Assembly (NCBI GenBank): GCA_015523565.1
Contig: WAKA01000153.1
Span: forward strand, 1 to 11,260
DNA from: Candidatus Heimdallarchaeota archaeon
GTDB taxonomy: Archaea; Asgardarchaeota; Heimdallarchaeia; Heimdallarchaeales; Kariarchaeaceae
Reading direction: 5' to 3'
Length of the DNA stretch: 11,260 bases
The position numbers and the translations under genes were made by a program. How positions within the stretch are numbered: the stretch's first letter is position 1; every line of letters begins with the position of its first letter. Below are positions 1 to 11,260 of the stretch, one piece after another. The notes below the pieces were generated by a model. It ran no database searches and was not told the DNA's origin. It saw nothing but the letters and a program-made list of their open reading frames with translations.

Positions 1-2
1 AT

Positions 3-974
3 CAAATCGATACAAAGGTTATCGGCGGTTTGGTCATTGCAATAAATGAATTTACTGGAAAACCATCAAAAAGAACAATTCGCTCAATTGTGATGAAAGA
101 ATTCACAATAAAATTCTCAACTGAATTAGATGTCTTGTTTGTTTTCATTTCAAAGAAGGGCATTGCTGAAAACGAATTGCTAAACGATTTTGTCAATTCC
201 CTATTGGATGCATACTCCGTGTCTTTTCTGACAGAGGATAACGAAAACATGGAATGGAATGACAAGGTAGCTATTGCATTTGTAAAAATTATCTTGTTGC
301 TTTCAGAGGAGTATCAACCTTCCATTCATTTGGGAGATAAATTGACATTGGATCTAGAGCTTTTATTCTATGAAGCTGATAAGAGCTTATCAAAAGTCTT
401 AAGCAGTATATACATCGAAACTGGTCCCACGATTGAAGAAAAGACAGAGGAAGATGCGGATAGCTCAATTGAAAAAGAAGAACAGGAAACACAAGAGGAA
501 ATCTTGGAAAAAAGCACAATTGCTCTTGAAAAAGAAGCAGAAACGATAGAAGAAAAAACCTACTCGTCAACGGATTCAACCGCCTTTGAGCAAATTCAAA
601 CTAATCCAATAAAAACCATTGAATTTATGGTTCGCAAATTCAACCAATCATTCTCTGATATTGTCTTGACCACTATCGTTCTAACATCAAGTGATAATCA
701 AATTCAAACCATTTCAGAAGGAACACTCGCCAATCATATCTTGGAAAAACTTAATTCAACTGTTCTTGAACTTCTTCCAATTGTCTACTCATTGTGGGAC
801 AAGTCGAGCCAAGAACGAACCCTAGAACTCGGAGAATATTGGGCATTTTTTCAAAAGATAAACGAGTCATCATTCATGTATGTAATCACTAAAACGCAGG
901 ATTCCATTACCCTAATAGAACCTATTCTGGAAAGACTGGCATATTCGATTCAATCAATTGTCCCTACCCTATAA
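3..974 (+). CDS. Hypothetical multidomain protein, 5'-truncated: longin-like N-terminal domain, acidic linker, roadblock/LC7-like C-terminal domain
   Basis: The frame is open from position 3 (QIDTKVIGGLVIAINEF...), so the true start is probably outside the window. The N-terminal pattern D-x2-IGGL-x2-AI-x2-F...IRSIVM...I-x-F...VLFVFIS...helix resembles archaeal longin-like domains. The last ~120 aa show an alpha-beta-beta-alpha-beta-beta-beta-alpha hydrophobic pattern typical of roadblock domains. The fold calls are inference. Confidence 0.6.
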   Translation, partial: QIDTKVIGGLVIAINEFTGKPSKRTIRSIVMKEFTIKFSTELDVLFVFISKKGIAENELLNDFVNSLLDAYSVSFLTEDNENMEWNDKVAIAFVKIILLLSEEYQPSIHLGDKLTLDLELLFYEADKSLSKVLSSIYIETGPTIEEKTEEDADSSIEKEEQETQEEILEKSTIALEKEAETIEEKTYSSTDSTAFEQIQTNPIKTIEFMVRKFNQSFSDIVLTTIVLTSSDNQIQTISEGTLANHILEKLNSTVLELLPIVYSLWDKSSQERTLELGEYWAFFQKINESSFMYVITKTQDSITLIEPILERLAYSIQSIVPTL

Positions 975-1712
975 CTGTCTTCTCATTTGCCATTGTGCAT
1001 GTGGGACACCAATGACAATGAAATAATAAATGTATACGGCAAAGATTTTCCCTAAAGTGTCAAACCATGCTGATGGACTGTATGTCATTAATAGCATAAG
1101 CAATATGCCTAAAATGAATTGAAACAGGTCAAATGGATTGTCTATTTTCTTCATAGCCGTAAATGGCAGACTTGACATCATCAGTGCACTTACCAAAATT
1201 GAAGAAAAAGCCACAAAAATTGGGTGTACATTGTTTATCACATAAAATGATGCAATGAAAATCGCGGCAGGAGGTGATGGCATTCCATTGAAAACCCATG
1301 ATTTCTTTGAAATAACAAAACGTGAAAGTCTAAATGAAGCAGTTAATACATAAAAACTTGCAGTAACCCATCCAATGAAGGTGTTATATGGAATTAACAT
1401 ATCCAACAACATTAATGCTGGAGAAAGTCCAAAAGTAACTAAATCTGCATATGTGTCAAGTTTTGCACCAATGGGGAACTTGAAATTCGATCTTCGTGCC
1501 AACTTGCCATCGATTGCATCAAATGATGCTCCCAGTACCACCAAACGCGTTGCCAAAGTTCTTTCTAAAGGTGAGTTAATTGCGAAAAAGAAAATGATGA
1601 TGGATCCGCAAAGTGCATTGGCGAATGTAGAAAAATATGCTGAGACTGCATAAATATCCATTTTTATCCCAAAAAGTGTGATCTCTCTTTTTCCAATCTT
1701 GTCTAAATCCAT
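969..1712 (-). CDS. pssA: CDP-alcohol phosphatidyltransferase, phosphatidylserine/archaetidylserine synthase
   Basis: Complete signature DxxDGxxAR-x8-GxxxDxxxD (DAIDGKLARRSNFKFPIGAKLDTYAD) followed by VTFGLSPA, RLSRF and FNGMPSPPAA, all typical of PssA. Multiple TM helices; adjacent to psd. Start moved to ATG at 1712, 1 nt after the psd stop and preceded by AGGTGG. Confidence 0.9.
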   Translation of the reverse strand: MDLDKIGKREITLFGIKMDIYAVSAYFSTFANALCGSIIIFFFAINSPLERTLATRLVVLGASFDAIDGKLARRSNFKFPIGAKLDTYADLVTFGLSPALMLLDMLIPYNTFIGWVTASFYVLTASFRLSRFVISKKSWVFNGMPSPPAAIFIASFYVINNVHPIFVAFSSILVSALMMSSLPFTAMKKIDNPFDLFQFILGILLMLLMTYSPSAWFDTLGKIFAVYIYYFIVIGVPHAQWQMRRQL

Positions 1713-1713
1713 T

Positions 1714-2340
1714 TTATTCCACCTTTGCCAATGCAGTAATGCCTGCATTTACCTTATCACCTTCCTTGACCATTAATGTTAAACCTCTTTTGGTGGTAAT
1801 TCGAAGATTTGTTTGACTTCCAAATCTGATAATCCCTATTTTCTCACCTTGACCTATTCTTTCCCCGATTTTCACCCATGTGTCGATTCTTCGTGCAAAT
1901 GCTCCTGTCAACAGTAAAATTTCTATATCCATAATTTCTGATTTTGCTTGGATTAATTTTCGTTCATTTTTCTGCTCTGCTCCCGCAAAATATACGGATT
2001 TATGCTTGCCTGGTGTATGCATAATTTCTTCTATTTCCATGTCATATGGTGCACGAATCAAATGAACATCAAATGGGGACATTCTGACTGCAACATTTAA
2101 GTGAAAATTTCCCTCTCTTTGTTCTATCTCCGCCTTGATGACTGTTCCATCTGCGGCAGAATAAATCAAAACCCCATTTTTTTCAATTTTCCTTTTAGGG
2201 TCCCTAAAAAACCAAATCAGATAAATCCCAAAAAAGGATGAAATAATGGATATGTAAATTCCCCATGGTCTAAACAATGGGATCAGGAGAATTGGTGAAA
2301 AAAAAGGAAATATGTATTTCCATGAACCTTTTGCAATCAT
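1714..2340 (-). CDS. psd: Phosphatidylserine/archaetidylserine decarboxylase proenzyme (pyruvoyl-dependent)
   Basis: N-terminal membrane segment, FFRDPxR, SAADG, MSPFDVH, NER, and the autocleavage motif IRFG/SQT (Ser codon at 1816-1818). ATG at 2340 preferred over TTG at 2352. Confidence 0.93.
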   Translation of the reverse strand: MIAKGSWKYIFPFFSPILLIPLFRPWGIYISIISSFFGIYLIWFFRDPKRKIEKNGVLIYSAADGTVIKAEIEQREGNFHLNVAVRMSPFDVHLIRAPYDMEIEEIMHTPGKHKSVYFAGAEQKNERKLIQAKSEIMDIEILLLTGAFARRIDTWVKIGERIGQGEKIGIIRFGSQTNLRITTKRGLTLMVKEGDKVNAGITALAKVE

Positions 2341-2613
2341 TGCTATTTGCAAATCCAGTTGCTGAATTTTAATGCTTTAGATATATGGTTCCACCTTAGA
2401 TCTAACGATTTATTCACTTATGATTTCAATTCAATAAAATATCTCGCCCTTTTCTTTACCACACATTCCCCCTCTCATTCTCTTAAAATATTTGATCTCA
2501 AATGTTTTTTGACGAAAAAATATCCTGGAATTATTTTTAGGTTATTTTCCGATTAATTTTCCTACAACAATTTGATCAAAACTTCTTTCCTGATTGTCAG
2601 ACACAAAATGACC

Positions 2614-2640
2614 TAAGGGAAGACTATTAATTACCCCTTA
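2614..2640 (+). promoter_or_regulatory. Candidate TATA-like box (TATTAATTA, 2625-2633) for the HMGCS operon, bracketed by the inverted repeat TAAGGG-N15-CCCTTA
   Basis: Seen directly in the divergent intergenic region, ~60 nt upstream of the ATG at 2692. Function is inferred. Confidence 0.35.
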
Positions 2641-2691
2641 AAATTTTGAATCGTTCAAAATAGTTTTTGGACAGTCAAGTGAGTTGGTAAA

Positions 2692-3735
2692 ATGAGCCTA
2701 GGAATTTTAGGTTATGGTGTCTATATCCCTAGATATCGAATATCGGTACATGAAATCGCCAGAATCTGGCACGAGGACGGCGAATCCATTTCAAAAGGGA
2801 TTAACGTTATTGAAAAGGCTGTCCCGGCTATGGATGAAGATACTGCAACAATAAGTGTCACTGCTGTTCAGAATGCTCTTCGACATAGCGGTCTTTCTCC
2901 CTCTGAAATCGGCGCTATTTATGTTGGTAGTGAATCCCATCCATATGCCGTAAAGCCTACTGCTGTGACAGTTGCAGAGGCCATTGGCGCAACTCCACAT
3001 TTGACTGCGGCTGACTTGGAATTTGCCTGCAAGGCTGGAACTGCTGGTATGCAAATGGTCTTTGGTCTGGTTGCCGCTGACGAGATAAGGGCAGGTATTG
3101 CAGTAGGAACAGACTGTGCCCAAGGAAGACCTGGTGATGCACTTGAATATACTGCTGGTGCTGGTGGGGCGGCATTTGTCATTGGAAAAAACAAGCCTAT
3201 TGCAACCCTTGAAGGAATGTATTCATACACAACCGACACTCCTGATTTTTGGAGGAGAGAGGGCGCCAGATATCCTTCCCATGCAGGACGGTTTACGGGC
3301 GCCCCCTCATATTTCAGACATACACTGTCTGCTACACAAGGTCTCCTTGATAAATTAGGACTCTCACTGAATGATTTTGACAGGGTGTCATTTCATCAAC
3401 CCAATGGCAGATTTCCGTTAAGTGCCGCAAAAGCATTGGGCATACCCCTTGAAAAGATCCAAGATGCACTATGCGTCCGACGTATCGGCAATACATATAG
3501 TGCCTCAAGCATGATGGGGTTTGCCAGACAACTTGATTTGGCAAAGCCTGGTGAACGAATTCTTTTGGTTAGCTATGGCTCTGGCGCAGGTAGTGATGCA
3601 TTTTCGTTTGTTGTGACGGATGAGATACTTGAGAAAAGGGAGCGGTCAATTCCTGTGGACAAATACATGGATAGGCGAACTGAGCTTGATTATGCCCTTT
3701 ATGCCAAACATAGAGGGAAAATCATAATGAAATAA
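2692..3735 (+). CDS. Archaeal-type hydroxymethylglutaryl-CoA synthase
   Basis: GxYIPRYRI start, DEDTAT, GSESHPYAVKP (Glu81), DLEFACKAGT (Cys113), DTPDFWRR, FHQPNG (His235), IGNTYS and SYGSGAGSDAF. The catalytic triad is intact. 347 aa; clustered with thiolase and DUF35 genes. Confidence 0.96.
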   Translation: MSLGILGYGVYIPRYRISVHEIARIWHEDGESISKGINVIEKAVPAMDEDTATISVTAVQNALRHSGLSPSEIGAIYVGSESHPYAVKPTAVTVAEAIGATPHLTAADLEFACKAGTAGMQMVFGLVAADEIRAGIAVGTDCAQGRPGDALEYTAGAGGAAFVIGKNKPIATLEGMYSYTTDTPDFWRREGARYPSHAGRFTGAPSYFRHTLSATQGLLDKLGLSLNDFDRVSFHQPNGRFPLSAAKALGIPLEKIQDALCVRRIGNTYSASSMMGFARQLDLAKPGERILLVSYGSGAGSDAFSFVVTDEILEKRERSIPVDKYMDRRTELDYALYAKHRGKIIMK

Positions 3736-3749
3736 AGGAGCAATGCGGT

Positions 3750-4916
3750 ATGGGAAAAAATGAAAAAGTTGCAGTCATAAGCACTGGAATGACTGAATTT
3801 GGTGACCTCTACGAATATGAAATAACTGGTATTGCAAATCTTGCAATTTATGAAGCGTTGAACAATCTTCATATCAAAAAAGAGGAAATTGAATCCCTTT
3901 ATGTCGGAAATATGGGCTCCCATCTTTTTGAAGGACAGGAAAACTTGGGAAATCTTATAGCCACATATGCGGGTCTGACTTGTCCTGCGTTCAAAATTCA
4001 AGCGGCAGGTGCATCTGGGGCTGTGGCTCTGAGGAATGCGGTCAAGGGCATTCAATCTGGATCAAAAGAGCTTGTCATGGTTTTGGGCGTTGAAAAAATG
4101 ACTGAAGCCACTAAACAGCACGAGGCACAACTTGCATTGGCATCTGGATTGGATACCAATTGGGAAACAAGGATGGGCGCAACACTTGCTTCACTTTTTG
4201 CAATCATGGCTAGAGCACATATGAGGGAATATGGGACAACTAGGGAACAAATTGCTAACGTTGTGGTGAAAAACCATTATAACGCAAGCCTGAATCCCAA
4301 GGCCCAATACAAAAATCGAGTGCGAGTTGAAAGTGTCTTAAGATCCAAGCTTCTCTCAGATCCCTTAAGGCTATTTGATGCCTGTGCTTTAAGTGACGGC
4401 GCCGCATCTGTTGTTTTGGCAAGCGAGGAAGTTGCATATTCATATGACAGTGATCCTGTTTTCATCTATCAAATAAAGCAAGGATTCGCTCCAATTGCAC
4501 TTCATCAAAGGGAATCCCTGACTGAATTTTCAGGCACAAAGTTTGCTGCGGAAAAAGCATATCGGGATATGGGAATTACTGCTGCTGATATCTCTCTCGC
4601 TGAAGTCCATGATATCTTTTCCATTGCAGAGATCATTGCAATTGAATCACTAGGTCTTGTCGAGAAAGGCAAGGGTGGATTTGCCACGGAAAACGGTGAT
4701 ACTGCATTGGATGGGTCAATCCCAATCAATACCAGTGGGGGCTTGAAAGGACGTGGCGCTCCTCTCGGTGCCACAGGGGTAGCTCAAATTATAGAGCTCT
4801 TTGATCAAATCAAAGGAAATGCTGGAGACAGGCAAATCAAAGACATCAAGTATGCATTGGCTCATTCAATGGGCGGTACAGGTGGAACTTCAGTAGTTAG
4901 TATTTTAGGAAGGTGA
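3750..4916 (+). CDS. Archaeal/SCP2-type thiolase-family protein with substituted catalytic residues (probably not an active acetoacetyl-CoA thiolase)
   Basis: Thiolase fold motifs GMTEFG, GVEKM, KNHYNASLNPKAQ, SDGAASVVL, AEVHD, INTSGGL, GATG and MGGTG are present. AAGASG replaces AACASG, HDIF replaces HDCF, and GAP replaces GHP. Confidence 0.9.
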   Translation: MGKNEKVAVISTGMTEFGDLYEYEITGIANLAIYEALNNLHIKKEEIESLYVGNMGSHLFEGQENLGNLIATYAGLTCPAFKIQAAGASGAVALRNAVKGIQSGSKELVMVLGVEKMTEATKQHEAQLALASGLDTNWETRMGATLASLFAIMARAHMREYGTTREQIANVVVKNHYNASLNPKAQYKNRVRVESVLRSKLLSDPLRLFDACALSDGAASVVLASEEVAYSYDSDPVFIYQIKQGFAPIALHQRESLTEFSGTKFAAEKAYRDMGITAADISLAEVHDIFSIAEIIAIESLGLVEKGKGGFATENGDTALDGSIPINTSGGLKGRGAPLGATGVAQIIELFDQIKGNAGDRQIKDIKYALAHSMGGTGGTSVVSILGR

Positions 4917-4921
4917 ATAAA

Positions 4922-5320
4922 ATGGGTGTTGCAAGATCTTGGAGAACTCAAAAATCTCGATATCGATTGACTGGAAGCAAATGCACTAAATGCGGTGCTC
5001 TATATTTCCCTATAAATATTGTTTGCATTAAATGCACTAGCCTTGATCTAGAGGAATTCCAATTCTCTGGAAAAGCAAAACTTATTGAATGGACCAGGGT
5101 TGATGAGGCCGCCAAAGGGTTTGAGCACCTAGTTCCCTATTATTTTGGTATCGTTGAACTCGAAGAGGGTGTTAGAATCTCCACTCAGATCGTTGATGTT
5201 GTTGATGAAAATATTCTGCAACCTGGGCTTCAATTGCAAATGACATTCCGAAAGCTTGGTGAAGGGACAGAAGAAGGTATCATCAACTACGGATTGAAAG
5301 CGGAACCTGTAGATTGGTAA
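4922..5320 (+). CDS. DUF35 family Zn-ribbon/OB-fold protein (thiolase-HMGCS scaffold)
   Basis: YRLTGSKCTKCGALYFP...CIKC zinc ribbon, then the OB-fold pattern PYYFGIVELEEGVRISTQIVD...MTFRKL...IINYGLK. ATG at 4922 is preceded by AGGTGA; the alternative is GTG at 4913. Confidence 0.93.
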   Translation: MGVARSWRTQKSRYRLTGSKCTKCGALYFPINIVCIKCTSLDLEEFQFSGKAKLIEWTRVDEAAKGFEHLVPYYFGIVELEEGVRISTQIVDVVDENILQPGLQLQMTFRKLGEGTEEGIINYGLKAEPVDW

Positions 5321-5395
5321 AAAAACATTGGAAAACTATTGGAAAGAAACTAATGGAAAAAATCTTAATACTCAGTTAATATTATTGTTAATATT
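5312..5395. repeat. Short imperfect tandem repeats in the convergent intergenic region; likely terminator region
   Basis: Four A(T/A)TGG(A/T)AA units between 5312 and 5360, then three TTAATA units (5365, 5376, 5388). On the minus strand these read as oligo-T tracts downstream of raSEA. Confidence 0.4.
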
Positions 5396-5426
5396 GTATT
5401 GCAAAAAAAATCTTGAAATGGTGTGG

Positions 5427-6524
5427 TCAGTGTCCATTATATCCAAAAATTCCTTGACCTGATGAAAATGTTTCGGCAATCAACGTGTTTTCGTATATAT
5501 TTCTGCAAACACAGTCTATTCCTTCCAAATACTTCAGATTTTGGCTCCCTGAGAATTTTTTAAGGGATTCCTTGATTGAATTGTCACACTTGCCACAATT
5601 TCTTGGTCCCCTGTCCTTGCCTGCGGCAACTGGATCACTGATGACAATGATGTCCTTTCCAAGTCGCTTTATGGCAATTGTGACGTCCAAAACAGTCCAA
5701 AGCCAAGGTGGACTATAACCACCCCTTTTGAAAAGCATTTCCATCAATGTCCATTTGCCAATATAGCATGGATTGATTGAAATTCCATCCACACCTAACA
5801 TTATCATTTGTTTCGCAGAAAAAATTGCATCGTCTTTTGCAAGCTTTTCTGAAACAAAGATTGGCTTGAGAAGGATATATCCCTTGACTCTAAATCCGTA
5901 TTGTTTTAATAACCTGACTGCTCGCTCAAATTGCTTAACCGTATGTCCCTTATTGTTTGATCGTTTGTTAATCTCATCATTCATGGTTTCCTGTCCGATG
6001 GCGACAATGACCCTTGAGGGGTCTATGACTTTTTTCACACTATCCAAATGTTTTTTGATTACGTATTCGCATCTTGTCTCTATAACTATCTCCCTCACCT
6101 TTTTTGAAAATCGCCTTAAGATTTCCTCTCTAACTTCAATTGGAAGTTCCCATGGATCTAGGAAGCTTCCTGAGGTATAGAACTTCACTGCAAGTATTTG
6201 GTCTGAATACTTCTTGCTTTTTTCAACAAACATACGTTCTGCATTATCGGGAATTCTCTTGAGGTCTTCATCAGAGGGGTTCAACGGATTGTCAGAAGGA
6301 AGTGTACAAAATGAACACCCTCCATGTTTTGCTCTGGCATATTTACAAGCCCTAGTTGGCAGTACCATTGCAATTGCCTTTCCCATGGTGCCGTCAGGTA
6401 GTATATGGTTATCAACCCATGAGGTGATCTTTGTGTGTTGTTTTTCCCTATGGCTGTCTGAAATGACCCTTAATCTTCCGATTTCAACTGTAAATGCTTT
6501 TGCTTTCTCTGGACTTGCTCTCAT
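5427..6524 (-). CDS. raSEA: Archaeosine biosynthesis radical SAM protein RaSEA
   Basis: Non-canonical radical SAM motif TRAC-x9-CSFC, plus KFYTSGSFLD, IETRCE, YILLKP, YSPPWLW, RGPRNCGKCD and a C-terminal CxC. Translationally coupled to arcS (ATGA overlap at 6521-6524, GGAGGTGA upstream). Confidence 0.9.
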   Translation of the reverse strand: MRASPEKAKAFTVEIGRLRVISDSHREKQHTKITSWVDNHILPDGTMGKAIAMVLPTRACKYARAKHGGCSFCTLPSDNPLNPSDEDLKRIPDNAERMFVEKSKKYSDQILAVKFYTSGSFLDPWELPIEVREEILRRFSKKVREIVIETRCEYVIKKHLDSVKKVIDPSRVIVAIGQETMNDEINKRSNNKGHTVKQFERAVRLLKQYGFRVKGYILLKPIFVSEKLAKDDAIFSAKQMIMLGVDGISINPCYIGKWTLMEMLFKRGGYSPPWLWTVLDVTIAIKRLGKDIIVISDPVAAGKDRGPRNCGKCDNSIKESLKKFSGSQNLKYLEGIDCVCRNIYENTLIAETFSSGQGIFGYNGH

Positions 6525-8362
6525 GGACTTTCACCTCCGATTCTCTTACGTACTTTGACTGCCGCACCGTTACTCACTTTTTTCATGGATAATCCAGACA
6601 TTATTGCATTGCCAACTGCAAGTGCTTGCTGACCCTCTTTATCAAAAATTATCACCTCATCTCCTGGCGCAATCGCTTCTGAAACTTCTGAAATCCCAGG
6701 GGCAAAAACTGAAGATCCTGAAATTTTATCCCCCTCAAATCTAACCCATGAGACCGTTTGCTTGTTTGATTCCACTATTGCAGGTGGAAATAGCCTTACC
6801 AATCCCCTATTCTCTGTCCAAGTGAGGTAATGCTCTCCTTTACGCTGTACAGCAATCGGTTTGGGTGAACGTCCATGAAATCTTAAATGATCCATTGGCA
6901 ATTCGAAACCATTTCCATGATTCCAATGAATCTGCGCCAAAATAGTATCAATCCATTCTTGGTGGCGGGTTTTCTCATTGAAAAAATAGTTGTCTTCAAG
7001 TTGAATGCTTTTCAATGTTTCCTCAAGACGCAAAATTGCCTCTTTCGAAGTTGGTTTGGTTCCTATCCATGACACCAATAAGTCAAATTCATTTTCCACC
7101 GCTTCAATCATTCCCCTGTAGCCTTCTGAAACATGAACAATAATTTTTGTCCCTTTTGGGATTTTCAACAACATCTTGCGCAAAATTTCTGCTGTCTCCT
7201 TTACTTCTTCAAGTGACCAATCACCACTGACAGGTATGTCATATGATCTTGCAGGGTGTATTGTTTCTAATTCATAAGGAACAACTCCTAACGGTGAAGT
7301 TAATGACCAAGTCTCAACCAACCGCCTTCTGCTTCCCAACGCCCTTTTGACCGCACCAAAAAACAAACGATGTGATCTTGAAAAAGAGTAGGGTTTTTTA
7401 GCGGAACATGGTACCAACAAAAGTATTGGTTTCTGCTTGGGATATGAATACCTTTCAACCAATCTTTGTTGATATGCTCTAACTTCTGGATGAGCAAGGG
7501 ATTCATCACCCGTGAAATAGATGGGATTTGTATGGTCAAACCTGAATTTTGAATAGGACAATCTTCTTTTGTTTAAGATTTTCACGTAGGTCGCAAAAGC
7601 CGGTGAAACATGCATTTCACGATAGAGCCTTTGCCAAATGATGTTTCTGGATACACTCTCTCTTAGCCCTGAAAAATCTCTCCACGTTTCCTCCAAATTT
7701 TCTTCAAGAATCTCCTGCATTGATTTGACCGATGGCTGTAAAAAATGGTCATGGTATGAGAAATGTTCCAATGCAGAAAGATACGGTGCGGCATCATCTA
7801 TAATGTCAACTCCCAAAGCAATCAACAAGGTGTTAAACCCTATAATTCCTGTTTTGGGGACATATAATGCAATGTTTGAGGGAAGTGTCTCCCGTATCTC
7901 CAAAATTTTGTCAATCAAGGTCTCTGGCTTTATTTTATCCAATCTAGGGAATCTTATCACCATTATTGATGGATTGAGCCCAACCAATTCCTCAAGTTCA
8001 GATATGTCCTGTCTCTCTGGATGAAATGGCAACCCAAAAGCGCCCTTTGGATTTATCTTTTCTAACCTGTCCAAAAACAGTCCATATTCATATTCAAAAG
8101 ATTCCTTGAACTCCGTATCTGGAGTCAATAAGGGCAAGTAAATTGGAATTGTCTCCCCCGAAATTTCCTTAAACTTATCTTCATTTTCAAACTCTTTGAT
8201 TGTTTCATTGTCAACAAATATTGGTTTCAGCTCAATCCCAGAAACAATATATTTTCCCTTCTGTGACTTCAGAAACCAAGGTGTCGGCTCATCTATCCTT
8301 GGCTCCACCAATTTCATTTCGCGGACATAGCCATTTTCCCTTATGATCTGAAATTTGCTCAC
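6521..8362 (-). CDS. arcS: Archaeosine synthase subunit alpha (degenerate TGT-like domain, DUF5591 domain, PUA domain)
   Basis: ALGVDIID (TGT-like), LLVPCSAKKPYSFSRSH, LTSPLGVVPYELE, YDIPVSGDW, and a C-terminal PUA domain (SVFAPGI...IAPGDEV...AVGNAIMSG...GAAVKVR). GTG at 8362 is proposed as the start because VSKFQIIRENGYVR matches the usual FEI..RDG.AR N-terminus. The ORF-track start at 8479 would overlap the divergent gene. Confidence 0.88.
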   Translation of the reverse strand: MSKFQIIRENGYVREMKLVEPRIDEPTPWFLKSQKGKYIVSGIELKPIFVDNETIKEFENEDKFKEISGETIPIYLPLLTPDTEFKESFEYEYGLFLDRLEKINPKGAFGLPFHPERQDISELEELVGLNPSIMVIRFPRLDKIKPETLIDKILEIRETLPSNIALYVPKTGIIGFNTLLIALGVDIIDDAAPYLSALEHFSYHDHFLQPSVKSMQEILEENLEETWRDFSGLRESVSRNIIWQRLYREMHVSPAFATYVKILNKRRLSYSKFRFDHTNPIYFTGDESLAHPEVRAYQQRLVERYSYPKQKPILLLVPCSAKKPYSFSRSHRLFFGAVKRALGSRRRLVETWSLTSPLGVVPYELETIHPARSYDIPVSGDWSLEEVKETAEILRKMLLKIPKGTKIIVHVSEGYRGMIEAVENEFDLLVSWIGTKPTSKEAILRLEETLKSIQLEDNYFFNEKTRHQEWIDTILAQIHWNHGNGFELPMDHLRFHGRSPKPIAVQRKGEHYLTWTENRGLVRLFPPAIVESNKQTVSWVRFEGDKISGSSVFAPGISEVSEAIAPGDEVIIFDKEGQQALAVGNAIMSGLSMKKVSNGAAVKVRKRIGGESP

Positions 8363-8485
8363 TGATACTCTTGTCTTTTCATCAAAATAAACTGTTTTGA
8401 TAGCCCCCACATAACTTCCCGATACAATGTTTTTCCGTAAAATCTGCTTAGAATCAAAAATATTAAACCCTTGAACCAAGAGAAA

Positions 8486-8503
8486 ACGAAAATAGTTAAA
8501 AAA
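8486..8503 (+). promoter_or_regulatory. Candidate BRE-TATA promoter of the gelsolin-domain gene
   Basis: ACGAAAATAG-TTAAAAAA has the same layout as the element upstream of the tRNA (CCGAAAAAGA-TTAATTAA). It lies ~55-60 nt before the ATG at 8558. Confidence 0.4.
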
Positions 8504-8557
8504 GAGAATGTGAAATTCTTATTAGAACTTTCATCCTCGGATGCTGTTGGTGATAAA

Positions 8558-9427
8558 ATGGCAGAATATTTCAAAGTACAGGAAGACGGGACATTACAAC
8601 CCTCATCAGAATTCAAACAAGAAGCTAACCAAGTCTACCTTGTTATTGACCATGACAAACGTCATCTTTTCCTTTGGAAAGGATCAGAAGCAGGAGTTCG
8701 ACTTAAATTTATCGGATCACGGGCAATGAGCGAGAAAAGGCAGGATTTGGGGTTCCATTACCAAATTCATGTCCTTGATCAAGGAGAGGAAACCCCGTTG
8801 TTTTGGGCCGCTATTGAAGGTAAAGATATTCCTGAGGTCATGCCCAAAAAGAAATCATATGAAATTGAACCTGAAGCTCCTCCAAACCTTGAAGAATTGG
8901 CAAGACAGCAAGGAATTTCTGTTGAGGAGGCTACCCGAGAATTTCAACAGCAAATGGAAGAAGTAGGTGATAAATTCGGAAAAATGGGTGGATTGACAAC
9001 CCGACCTAGAAAAACGCTTCTATCTGAAATGTCATCTGCGGCACCCCCAAGTCCACAAAGGGCATCTGTACCTCCTGCCGCATCAACAACTGTTGCAGAA
9101 AAGCCAAGAAAATCTCAATCAAACCTACTCAAAGAAGCTGTTGAACTCCTCAAGGCACTAGGTGACCTTAAAGGGTATACACGTGAAATGGTCGTTGTAG
9201 GGGATCAAGTTTATAGGGTCAAGGACGAAGTAAATCTTGAAGAGTTGGATACACCATTGGAGGGGATTTTCAGGGTTGATGAATTCACTCCGAGACTTAT
9301 TTGTGAATCTGGCAAAGTGAAGGTCATCGAACTCCTCAAACGTACTGGAACTGAAGAAGACATGGATGAAACCCTTACACAGAACCTCTCAGATCTTACA
9401 AGCATGTTCATGATTGAAATTGAATGA
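8558..9427 (+). CDS. Gelsolin/cofilin-fold protein: single N-terminal gelsolin-like domain, charged/Pro-rich linker, uncharacterised C-terminal domain
   Basis: QVYLVID...LFLWKGSEA...long helix...IHVLDQGEETPLFW matches the gelsolin repeat consensus (DxY/FILD..IYxWxG..S/A...V.V.QGxE...F). ATG at 8558 is preceded by GGTGA; 289 aa. Confidence 0.82.
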   Translation: MAEYFKVQEDGTLQPSSEFKQEANQVYLVIDHDKRHLFLWKGSEAGVRLKFIGSRAMSEKRQDLGFHYQIHVLDQGEETPLFWAAIEGKDIPEVMPKKKSYEIEPEAPPNLEELARQQGISVEEATREFQQQMEEVGDKFGKMGGLTTRPRKTLLSEMSSAAPPSPQRASVPPAASTTVAEKPRKSQSNLLKEAVELLKALGDLKGYTREMVVVGDQVYRVKDEVNLEELDTPLEGIFRVDEFTPRLICESGKVKVIELLKRTGTEEDMDETLTQNLSDLTSMFMIEIE

Positions 9428-9456
9428 AAATTTATTAGAGAAGGTCAATCAAACTA

Positions 9457-9476
9457 CCGAAAAAGATTAATTAATC
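9457..9476 (+). promoter_or_regulatory. BRE-TATA promoter of tRNA-Val
   Basis: CCGAAAAAG followed by ATTAATTAAT, centred ~30 nt upstream of the tRNA 5' end. GATTAATTAATC (9465-9476) is a perfect palindrome. Confidence 0.6.
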
Positions 9477-9500
9477 CCTTTCCGTCTTAACTTTGTAAAA

Positions 9501-9573
9501 GGGCTCGTGGTCTAGGGGCTATGACGCCTCCCTCACACGGAGGAGATCGCCGGTTCAATTCCGGCCGAGCCCA
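9501..9573 (+). tRNA. tRNA-Val(CAC), intronless, CCA not encoded
   Basis: Acceptor stem GGGCTCG/CGAGCCC, D arm GTC...GAC, anticodon stem CCTCC/GGAGG with loop CT-CAC-AC (anticodon 9534-9536), T arm GCCGG-TTCAATT-CCGGC, discriminator A at 9573. Confidence 0.97.
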
Positions 9574-9585
9574 TTTTTTATTTTT
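9574..9585 (+). terminator. Oligo-T archaeal terminator of the tRNA
   Basis: TTTTTTATTTTT immediately follows the discriminator base. Confidence 0.6.
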
Positions 9586-10033
9586 CCTGTATCTTTCTCT
9601 TTTGCAATGCCAGAAACATTCGGAGTGTGAATGAAAGTTCAATAATCCAAGCCAAAAAAAAGAAAATTAATGTGGCATCCTTGTTTATTTTCAATAGAAT
9701 TAATGCAAAGAAAATGGTGAATATCAGAAATGCAACTTGGAATACTGCCCTGTTAATTAACTTGCCCTTTACAAGTAGGAAAGAAAAATTTACTGGCACA
9801 TTGAATGAATTCATCTGTTTTGCATAGTCTGTTACCCTATATGTATTGTCCTTTAATTTTTCGAGATATCCTTTTTCTACAAGCTTGTTGAAATGCCAAT
9901 GAACTGTACTCGCACTGTGTATCCCTAGTTCTCTTTGTGTTTCCCTTATGCTTAAGGGCTCATTTTTTCTTTTGGCGTAAAGGAAAAGTTCAAGCGTCAG
10001 TGGATTCTGAAAATTTCCATTGTCCACTTTCAT
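9578..10033 (-). CDS. Membrane-anchored winged helix-turn-helix transcriptional regulator
   Basis: N-terminal wHTH (PLSIRETQRELGIHSASTVHWHFNKLVEKGYLEK...YRVT), followed by two hydrophobic helices (AVFQVAFLIFTIFFALILL; ATLIFFFLAWIIELSFTL) and a basic tail. Confidence 0.8.
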   Translation of the reverse strand: MKVDNGNFQNPLTLELFLYAKRKNEPLSIRETQRELGIHSASTVHWHFNKLVEKGYLEKLKDNTYRVTDYAKQMNSFNVPVNFSFLLVKGKLINRAVFQVAFLIFTIFFALILLKINKDATLIFFFLAWIIELSFTLRMFLALQKRKIQEK

Positions 10034-10842
10034 TCCTCCAATAGAAGTTCAATCAGATTATTGACTGCTTTGGTGTATGTTGGGAAATGAACCTGCTCTG
10101 TTGCAATATAATATTCATCTGGTTGTTCTGATACCCTGTATCTTGTCCCTTCCCTATTGGAAAAATATTCCGTGAAATATGTAACCCTTAAGAAAAACAT
10201 GTCTTGAATAATTGAAATGTAAAGCAGGGTTCCATCTGTAAAGGAAATTTGTATTCTTATTTCTGTGTTGTTCAAATGGATTTGATTCCTTTTCATTGTT
10301 TCAAAATAAGACTCATTGACGAAATGAAGGTCTTGCATTAAAGATATGTCTTGAGTCAACGCCTCTGAAATATTCTCAAGGTTCATATTTTGCATTTGCA
10401 ATTCCAAATCCCTCCATCCAAAAACAGAAGAATTGTATATTATTCTTCCAAGCCATGTGTTTGAGTTCATGTCCTTCCATATTCTGACGGAATATGTCTG
10501 ATGTGCATAAATTGGAATTCCAACCCCTGCATAACCAAATACAGGTTCTTCACATGGACTGGGTGAGCACGTCGCCTCTATATTTGTAGATTCCCCAAGA
10601 ACTGCATCAATCCTAATTCCTTCCGTAGAAAAGGCTATGATCTCATGATCATTGCTGGCAAACCCTTGTGCCATTGTAAGTCCTGAATTGAAATTCCAGA
10701 CATAATTTGAGGATACTGGAACCATCTTTACAGATTGCTCGTCATTCCTGAATTGCCTCTCAATTGAAAGGGATGCAAATGCAAGCAAAAACACAAGTAT
10801 AAATGCTTGGACAACTTGTTTTGAGTAAGGAAAAACTTTCAT
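10030..10842 (-). CDS. Hypothetical exported or membrane-anchored protein
   Basis: 270-aa ORF with an N-terminal signal/TM segment (VVQAFILVFLLAFASLSI) and a beta-rich soluble region containing a CSPSPC pair. Its stop overlaps the wHTH start (ATGA). No family recognised. Confidence 0.75.
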   Translation of the reverse strand: MKVFPYSKQVVQAFILVFLLAFASLSIERQFRNDEQSVKMVPVSSNYVWNFNSGLTMAQGFASNDHEIIAFSTEGIRIDAVLGESTNIEATCSPSPCEEPVFGYAGVGIPIYAHQTYSVRIWKDMNSNTWLGRIIYNSSVFGWRDLELQMQNMNLENISEALTQDISLMQDLHFVNESYFETMKRNQIHLNNTEIRIQISFTDGTLLYISIIQDMFFLRVTYFTEYFSNREGTRYRVSEQPDEYYIATEQVHFPTYTKAVNNLIELLLEE

Positions 10843-10865
10843 ACATTAGCTGTGACCAATGTAAT

Positions 10866-10907
10866 TAAAATATATATTGCGTGTACAATCCTGTCCAGGC
10901 TCTGGAC
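10866..10907 (-). promoter_or_regulatory. Candidate TATA box (TATATATTTT on the minus strand) with an upstream palindrome GTCCAG-GCT-CTGGAC (10893-10907)
   Basis: The AT box lies ~25-35 nt upstream of the ATG at 10842, consistent with a leaderless transcript. A GC-rich perfect 6-bp inverted repeat sits just upstream of it. Confidence 0.4.
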
Positions 10908-10919
10908 GCTAAAAAAATT

Positions 10920-11260
10920 TTATTCCATTTTGCATTTTCCGAATCTTCCTTGTTCTATATAATATCTATCTGGCAGGATGTTTATAGTTTGAATATCAGT
11001 TCATATCTCTTGTCAATATTCTTTTCAATCAGCTTTGGGATTGTGCTGAAATGAATTCGATCGCCCTTTGCTTTTTTCTTTGGTAACTTCGTTTCTACTA
11101 CATATCAATCTCAGTATCAAATGTTTTTGAAATCAATTTTAAATAAGATATGACTTCTTCTGGATCCAACTGGCTTCTTGGTTTTTCATTCGTTATCCCC
11201 ATCTTTTTTATTACCTTTGTTGCATGCAATGCCCTAATTATCTGTTGATGGGAAAAAAGC
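10920..11260 (-). pseudogene. Possible frameshifted 3' remnant of a gene
   Basis: Protein-like fragments follow one another in different minus-strand frames (LFSHQQIIRALHATKVIKKMG / ITNEKPRSQLDPEEVISYLKLISKTFDTEID / YVVETKLPKKKAKGDRIHFSTIPKLIEKNIDKRYELIF / INILPDRYYIEQGRFGK), with coding-like purine richness. No homolog recognised. Confidence 0.3.

Follow-up and report, generated by a model that had tools for sequence, protein, structure and literature searches.

A complex of thiolase, HMG-CoA synthase (HMGCS) and a DUF35 protein is the textbook way in which archaea pull the unfavourable thiolase reaction toward membrane lipids. Here we describe an operon of these three genes in an 11,260-nucleotide stretch of Candidatus Heimdallarchaeota archaeon DNA (contig WAKA01000153.1, positions 1 to 11,260; the whole stretch is denoted the window), whose thiolase-fold subunit lacks the thiolase catalytic residues and is probably kept as a non-catalytic partner of HMGCS. 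In the canonical archaeal complex, as summarised in two papers, HMGS alone is inactive and ACAT, the thiolase, is insoluble alone (PMC12960953 and PMC12329534, citing Vogeli 2018); DUF35 bridges both enzymes, and HMGCS and thiolase share a fused CoA site at their interface (PMC12960953, PMC12329534). In the bacterial PhlABC, MucABC and Pseudomonas fluorescens complexes a dead HMGS-like subunit is retained beside a working thiolase-like one (PMC12960953). A 2024 survey of archaeal mevalonate genes leaves the thiolase step untreated, and no paper that describes an archaeal HMGCS operon with a Cys-less thiolase turned up in full-text literature searches.

The thiolase-fold gene (3750..4916, forward strand) encodes a protein of 388 amino acids with Thiolase_N and Thiolase_C_1 domains. 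As the initial annotation had stated, its open reading frame (ORF) is full-length, with no stop or frameshift, and three catalytic motifs are altered. At the nucleophile, AACASG has become AAGASG, with Gly87 (GGT, 4008..4010) in place of the Cys. HDCF reads HDIF (4608..4619); His287 (CAT) and Asp288 are kept, and Ile289 (ATC, 4614-4616) occupies the site of the acid/base Cys, a position that is Cys or Ala in genuine thiolases. GHP reads GAP (4755..4763), with Ala337 (GCT, 4758-4760) at the position of the catalytic His. HMMER alignments to two solved archaeal thiolases agree with this reading: in the matches to the Methanothermococcus thermolithotrophicus enzyme (6ESQ/6ET9; E 2.6e-75, residues 6-386 of the window protein against 6ESQ_A) and to the Pyrococcus furiosus enzyme (7YVY; E 7e-78), Gly87 is aligned with the AACASG Cys, Ile289 with the third letter of HDCF/HDAF and Ala337 with the GHP His. 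The fold is evidently that of a thiolase, with an AlphaFold2 model (pLDDT 85.8) whose best PDB match is 6ET9_C/6ESQ_A at a TM score of 0.92-0.93. Profile PRK06064 scores 438 bits, above its cut-off, and the equivalog NF053570 (AcCoTHIOL_METTL) 406.6 bits, below its cut-off of 600.

The three substitutions do not carry equal weight. Reversal of Gly to Cys needs one base change, whereas Ile to Cys and Ala to His need two each, which bears out the earlier claim that two of the three require at least two changes. Among 116 non-redundant canonical relatives the nucleophile column is Cys in every sequence and the GHP column is His in 99%, so the substitutions in the window protein are not chance variation. 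Genuine thiolases do not all have the HDCF Cys: 25 of the best 150 representatives, and 7YVY (HDAF), carry Ala there instead. Thus Ile289 is present as the initial annotation reported, but its listing of HDCF among the required motifs was too strict; Ile289 taken alone is weak evidence, and the losses at positions 87 and 337 are strong. We also looked for a substitute nucleophile. The window protein holds only two Cys, Cys78 and Cys212, both of which vary within the genus or family, and no substitute Cys is conserved among its orthologues; hence no alternative nucleophile is available and the loss stands. Since the nucleophilic Cys, the HDCF Cys and the GHP His are all absent, acetoacetyl-CoA is not made or channelled here by the known mechanism.

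The source genome is metagenome-assembled (3.57 Mb in 233 contigs, ~90% completeness), a setting in which errors of sequencing or assembly, or a decaying gene, could be suspected. Such an origin has next to no probability in our estimate, because the same state is found in independent assemblies and selection is not relaxed. Orthologues 89, 82, 71 and 65% identical to the window protein are all Cys-less with HDIF and GAP, and all have intact reading frames. Between the window and its closest orthologue the proportion of synonymous differences (pS) is 0.72, which is saturated, and the proportion of nonsynonymous differences (pN) is as low in the thiolase-like gene (0.086) as in HMGCS (0.085). 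Saturation meant that dN/dS, at ~0.04-0.09, was computable for few pairs only, so that the argument rests on the contrast of pN with pS and on HMGCS as a yardstick. When pairs of equal HMGCS divergence are compared, the divergence of Cys-less subunits exceeds that of canonical ones by only a few points, the pairs being non-independent.

Loss of the nucleophilic Cys is order-wide, recurs in other lineages and is not peculiar to the source genome. Among 40 relatives searched, the operon was present at 29 further loci, and we read the motifs of every thiolase there. All 30 operon-linked orthologues sampled from the order, from three families (f1, f2 and f4), lack the nucleophilic Cys, so the close relatives share the loss. 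What replaces it varies: position 87 is G, D, E, N or T, position 289 is I, V, S or A, and position 337 is A, Y, F or D, with His once. Even within the genus of the window, four species have Gly, Gly, Asp and Glu at position 87. In a wider sample of the phylum the pattern is patchy, with a canonical operon thiolase in nine other families, one of them of the same class, and a Cys-less one in four more. Family f5 of the same class (7 genomes) and family f13 (29 genomes) gave no archaeal-type HMGCS match at E <= 1e-60, the listed genomes being 87-100% complete; HMGCS of another type may operate in these two families.

A FastTree phylogeny of 170 sequences places the window protein inside the HMGCS-linked archaeal thiolases, within a 44-member group that is entirely Cys-less (support 89). 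Further Cys-less groups appear elsewhere in the tree, and strongly supported branches force at least 4 state changes. About one third of the 150 best representatives at 50% identity, drawn from 1.8 billion proteins, have no nucleophilic Cys, and Cys-less homologues also carry the labels Thermoplasmata, Thermoplasmatota and Methanomassiliicoccales. One of these was seen in its operon: a Methanomassiliicoccales-like ENA contig of 2.56 Mb (L039:2944-5563) holds the same three genes with a Cys-less thiolase reading G, HDNF and GDP. At that locus the HMGCS and DUF35 frames are broken up, and indels in the assembly are the most likely cause. A closed genome (G015:C1:1296100-1302482) contains two tandem HMGCS-thiolase units, separated by ~4 kb, whose HMGCS scores are identical; the copy that was read (L020/L048) is Cys-less, and one canonical thiolase lies elsewhere in that genome.

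To learn how the rest of the protein has fared, we contrasted 82 non-redundant Cys-less sequences with the 116 canonical ones, taking >85% identity of a column as conserved. Conservation is lost in the Cys-less group at five positions only, 86, 87, 211, 290 and 337, where position 87 is G, S, D, N, T or E and position 337 is H, D, A, N or Y. Another 32 positions pass the threshold in both groups, including Glu115, His287, Asp288, Asn327 and the glycine framework. Catalytic positions that vary among orthologues suggest a dead site and not a re-tooled one, and the combination of variable catalytic positions, no newly fixed residue and an otherwise constant protein is the signature of a pseudoenzyme that is retained for a non-catalytic role. 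We therefore favour, with more confidence than doubt, the explanation that the thiolase-fold subunit is a pseudoenzyme, a structural and CoA-site partner of HMGCS, and that acetoacetyl-CoA comes from paralogous thiolases or from 3-hydroxyacyl-CoA dehydrogenases. The initial annotation had offered a scaffold or CoA-binding subunit beside new chemistry; the variable catalytic positions, the purifying selection and the canonical paralogues described below favour the former branch.

HMGCS (2692..3735), the thiolase-fold gene and the DUF35 gene are co-directional on the forward strand in this order. HMGCS stops with TAA at 3733-3735, leaving a gap of 14 nt before the thiolase ATG, which is preceded 9 nt upstream by a Shine-Dalgarno-like GGAG (3737..3740, by direct reading of the sequence). 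The DUF35 gene ends at 5320 and could start at GTG 4913, overlapping the thiolase stop, or at ATG 4922, 6 nt further on, which is preceded by GGAAGG and is the more likely start from the sequence. The short gap and the overlapping or adjacent stop and start are the layout of one operon, and the gene order is kept at all 29 related loci wherever the flank was recovered. A single HMGCS and a single HMG-CoA reductase were found in the source genome; being single-copy, they make this operon the entry to the mevalonate pathway.

HMGCS is of the archaeal type (TIGR00748, 528 bits, above cut-off) and retains its catalytic residues. It matches the HMGCS chain of 6ESQ at E 3.6e-133, and its Glu81, Cys113, His235 and Asn267 align to the E82/C114/H238/N270 tetrad named for the archaeal enzyme (PMC12960953). 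Three of these residues had been noted from the window alone; all four are invariant in 22 orthologues. The DUF35 protein is free-standing, 132-135 amino acids long, with a rubredoxin-like zinc ribbon (PF12172) and an OB fold (PF01796) and nothing else. Its four zinc Cys, likewise noted before, are present in the window protein and invariant in the 22 orthologues. A predicted complex of HMGCS, DUF35 and the thiolase-like protein scored 0.90, against 0.84 for a control in which HMGCS was replaced, so that the prediction speaks neither for nor against binding.

Under the pseudoenzyme explanation, the three proteins would still assemble as in M. thermolithotrophicus, with the dead subunit giving structural support and forming part of the site for CoA and pantetheine. 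Acetoacetyl-CoA would enter from solution, unchannelled, having been made by a paralogous thiolase or by oxidation of 3-hydroxybutyryl-CoA, and Cys113 of HMGCS would perform the sole condensation in the complex. Retention of the subunit would follow from the dependence of archaeal HMGCS on the assembled complex and from the CoA site at the HMGCS-thiolase interface. A possible benefit is that such a complex would no longer cleave acetoacetyl-CoA to acetyl-CoA in an organism with beta-oxidation-type reactions.

In the source genome the supply of acetoacetyl-CoA is no problem. Four canonical thiolases with Cys, HDCF and GHP are encoded elsewhere (on contigs C169, C122, which holds two, and C202), each adjoining a DUF35 gene, and there are three Hbd-type dehydrogenases. 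One of the latter, a 3-hydroxyacyl-CoA dehydrogenase, lies ~1 kb from the canonical thiolase/DUF35 pair of C202 on the opposite strand (C202:13981-16692), and this locus is likely an acetoacetyl-CoA-handling cluster.

One of these four canonical thiolases, at C122:56795-57940, has a DUF35 partner (L003:203-1495, reverse strand) with an N-terminal extension of ~300 amino acids that has no Pfam match and contains a DEDATT motif resembling the DEDTAT of HMGCS. Tested as a possible decayed HMGCS, the extension had no BLASTP match and a weak hhalign alignment of 60 residues (E 0.013, probability 3%). In addition, two tandem, very divergent thiolase-fold ORFs (C99:1105-3140, reverse strand), 30-36% identical to the window protein, are also without the nucleophilic Cys, the HD motif and the GHP His.

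Several observations weigh against the pseudoenzyme explanation. The assembly of the three proteins, and the dependence of HMGCS on its partners, would be carried over by analogy from the canonical complex. The pocket is well preserved: Glu115, His287, Asp288 and Asn327 are 90-100% conserved in the Cys-less group (His287 90%, Asp288 100%). An inert scaffold might be expected to lose residues such as His287, an active-site residue in canonical thiolases, so the pocket may still bind or act. At Arg254 the Cys-less group, with 98%, is more conserved than the canonical set, with 58%. Finally, paralogous thiolases cannot be the source of acetoacetyl-CoA in part of the order. Five genomes of the sister family f2 (G012, G026, G028, G031 and G035), which are 88-95% complete, four of them at least 90%, gave no canonical thiolase in a search with PF00108. 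The Cys-less protein is their sole Thiolase_N match at E <= 0.001, except in G012, where an extra match (E 4e-4, 20.6 bits) is below cut-off and lies within a frame of 3524 amino acids. Most f2 genomes had shown a single thiolase match in the initial search of relatives, too.

The conserved pocket and the thiolase-free f2 genomes also speak for a subunit that is still catalytic through Cys-free chemistry, either by decarboxylating malonyl-CoA to feed HMGCS, to which it would deliver an acetyl-CoA enolate or an acetoacetyl unit, or by aiding the formation of acetoacetyl-CoA on the HMGCS cysteine. Ketosynthases with Cys changed to Gln, Asn or Asp decarboxylate malonyl-CoA weakly. Many members of the Cys-less group have Asp, Asn or Glu at the nucleophile position. 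No KAS III or NphT7-type enzyme was found in the five f2 genomes either, their ACP_syn_III_C matches being HMGCS and, in G026, one type III polyketide synthase. The Cys-less Trypanosoma brucei protein TbSLP has been reported to show malonyl-CoA decarboxylase activity, which is only very weak (PMC12329534). Nevertheless, no new catalytic residue has been fixed: the genus of the window has Gly, Asp or Glu at position 87 and Ala at the GHP position, and Arg254 is the only gain of conservation in the Cys-less group. The source genome has its four canonical thiolases, and the thiolase-free relatives could obtain acetoacetyl-CoA through acyl-CoA dehydrogenase, crotonase and Hbd. On balance we regard Cys-free catalysis as unlikely, while giving it serious consideration.

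The f2 genomes need either a C4 acyl-CoA route or a residual or novel activity of the complex; one of the two must hold there if the mevalonate pathway runs. In each of the five, acyl-CoA dehydrogenase, crotonase and Hbd have exactly one strong match apiece. A 4-hydroxybutyryl-CoA dehydratase (PF11794), a candidate source of crotonyl-CoA, was not found in these five genomes. The Hbd gene of G012 is isolated, flanked by a family-B DNA polymerase locus and a Ras-like GTPase. We tentatively suggest, while thinking it rather improbable as a general rule, that isoprenoid entry in the whole order is not a thiolase condensation. HMGCS, with a dead thiolase and DUF35, would then use C4-derived acetoacetyl-CoA made by acyl-CoA dehydrogenase, crotonase and Hbd, or the acetoacetyl-CoA would be formed by a Cys-independent, possibly malonyl-CoA-dependent reaction.

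If the thiolase-fold subunit is a pseudoenzyme, the annotation of such genes as acetyl-CoA acetyltransferase would be wrong and the first step of the mevalonate pathway mis-assigned in Asgard archaea, Thermoplasmatota and others. Channelling could then not operate in a lineage whose thiolase subunit is dead throughout, and the relatives that have no other thiolase point to a different entry of carbon into isoprenoids. This would matter for the understanding of lipid metabolism in the closest archaeal relatives of eukaryotes.

The remaining genes of the window are as follows. Divergent from the mevalonate operon, on the reverse strand at 969-2352, are mutually overlapping genes for a CDP-alcohol phosphatidyltransferase (archaetidylserine-synthase-like) and a phosphatidylserine decarboxylase; lipid head-group genes thus adjoin the isoprenoid entry genes. 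The reverse strand at 5427-8479 encodes an ArcS alpha subunit (DUF5591 and PUA, 652 amino acids, 275.6 bits, below the equivalog cut-off of 440), overlapping by 4 nt its radical-SAM partner RaSEA (TIGR01210, 283.7 bits, above cut-off), an ordinary ArcS-RaSEA pair. Three ORFs of 270-318 amino acids, at 30-974 and 8471-9427 on the forward strand and at 10030-10842 on the reverse strand, matched no Pfam or NCBIfam family.

Among described systems, the closest is the M. thermolithotrophicus thiolase/HMGCS/DUF35 complex (6ESQ; 2018). The window operon shares with it the three genes, the intact HMGCS tetrad, thiolase homology over the full length and the four zinc Cys of DUF35. It differs in its thiolase subunit, in which nucleophilic Cys, HDCF Cys and GHP His are all missing and which scores below the equivalog cut-off. 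ST0096 of Sulfolobus tokodaii (4YZO; E 2.4e-68) is an archaeal relative that is also Cys-less, with Ser in NTSGSGG, HDMA and GHP; no functional study of it was found in the literature. In the tree it falls in a separate Cys-less group (S, HDM., GHP), whose nearest representative, P0058, has no HMGCS neighbour, and by this placement and context ST0096 appears not to belong to the HMGCS-linked group of the window protein. TbSLP (5AB4-5AB7) resembles the window protein in its SCP2-thiolase fold and altered catalytic motifs. It is eukaryotic, has a YDCF motif and no DUF35 or HMGCS partner, and is a distant match (E 6.2e-20).

The steroid aldolases Ltp2-ChsH2(DUF35) and Sal-Shy(DUF35) (6OK1, 9MYR) also combine a Cys-less thiolase fold with DUF35 (PMC12329534), and the initial annotation had drawn the analogy with Ltp2. 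By this analogy the window protein would be an aldolase acting with DUF35 in a retro-aldol reaction on a hydroxyacyl-CoA, and 6OK1 and 9MYR are indeed among the structural matches of its model, at ranks 32 and 48. The analogy fails at the level of the motif. Ltp2 uses Tyr294 of YDHF as base, together with Tyr344, and Sal uses Tyr302 and Cys304 of YDCY (PMC12329534), whereas the window protein has His287 of HDIF at the first position of this motif, which largely refutes the aldolase. Similarity is weak, the 6OK1 match being partial (residues 138-352, E 3.5e-23) and 50 orders of magnitude below the full-length match to 6ESQ. DUF35 is a free protein here and not the C-terminal domain of a MaoC-type hydratase, as it is in ChsH2 and Shy; the aldolases have no HMGCS partner; and the tree sets the window protein among HMGCS-linked archaeal thiolases. 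An aldolase is thus very improbable.

The likeness in principle lies with PhlABC of P. protegens, MucABC of S. macacae and the ACAT/HMGS-DUF35 complex of P. fluorescens. These systems are tripartite, and in each one thiolase-superfamily subunit is dead yet obligatory (PMC12960953). As far as its sequence tells, the thiolase-fold protein of the window would count as a pseudoenzyme subunit in the same sense, with its catalytic residues lost and variable, under purifying selection and next to an intact partner. In the bacterial complexes the dead subunit is HMGS-like and the thiolase-like one works; in the window operon the roles are reversed, and the system stays in mevalonate metabolism. The archaeal operon would thus be the mirror image of PhlABC and MucABC, indicating that either half of this two-enzyme machine can persist as a structural pseudoenzyme.

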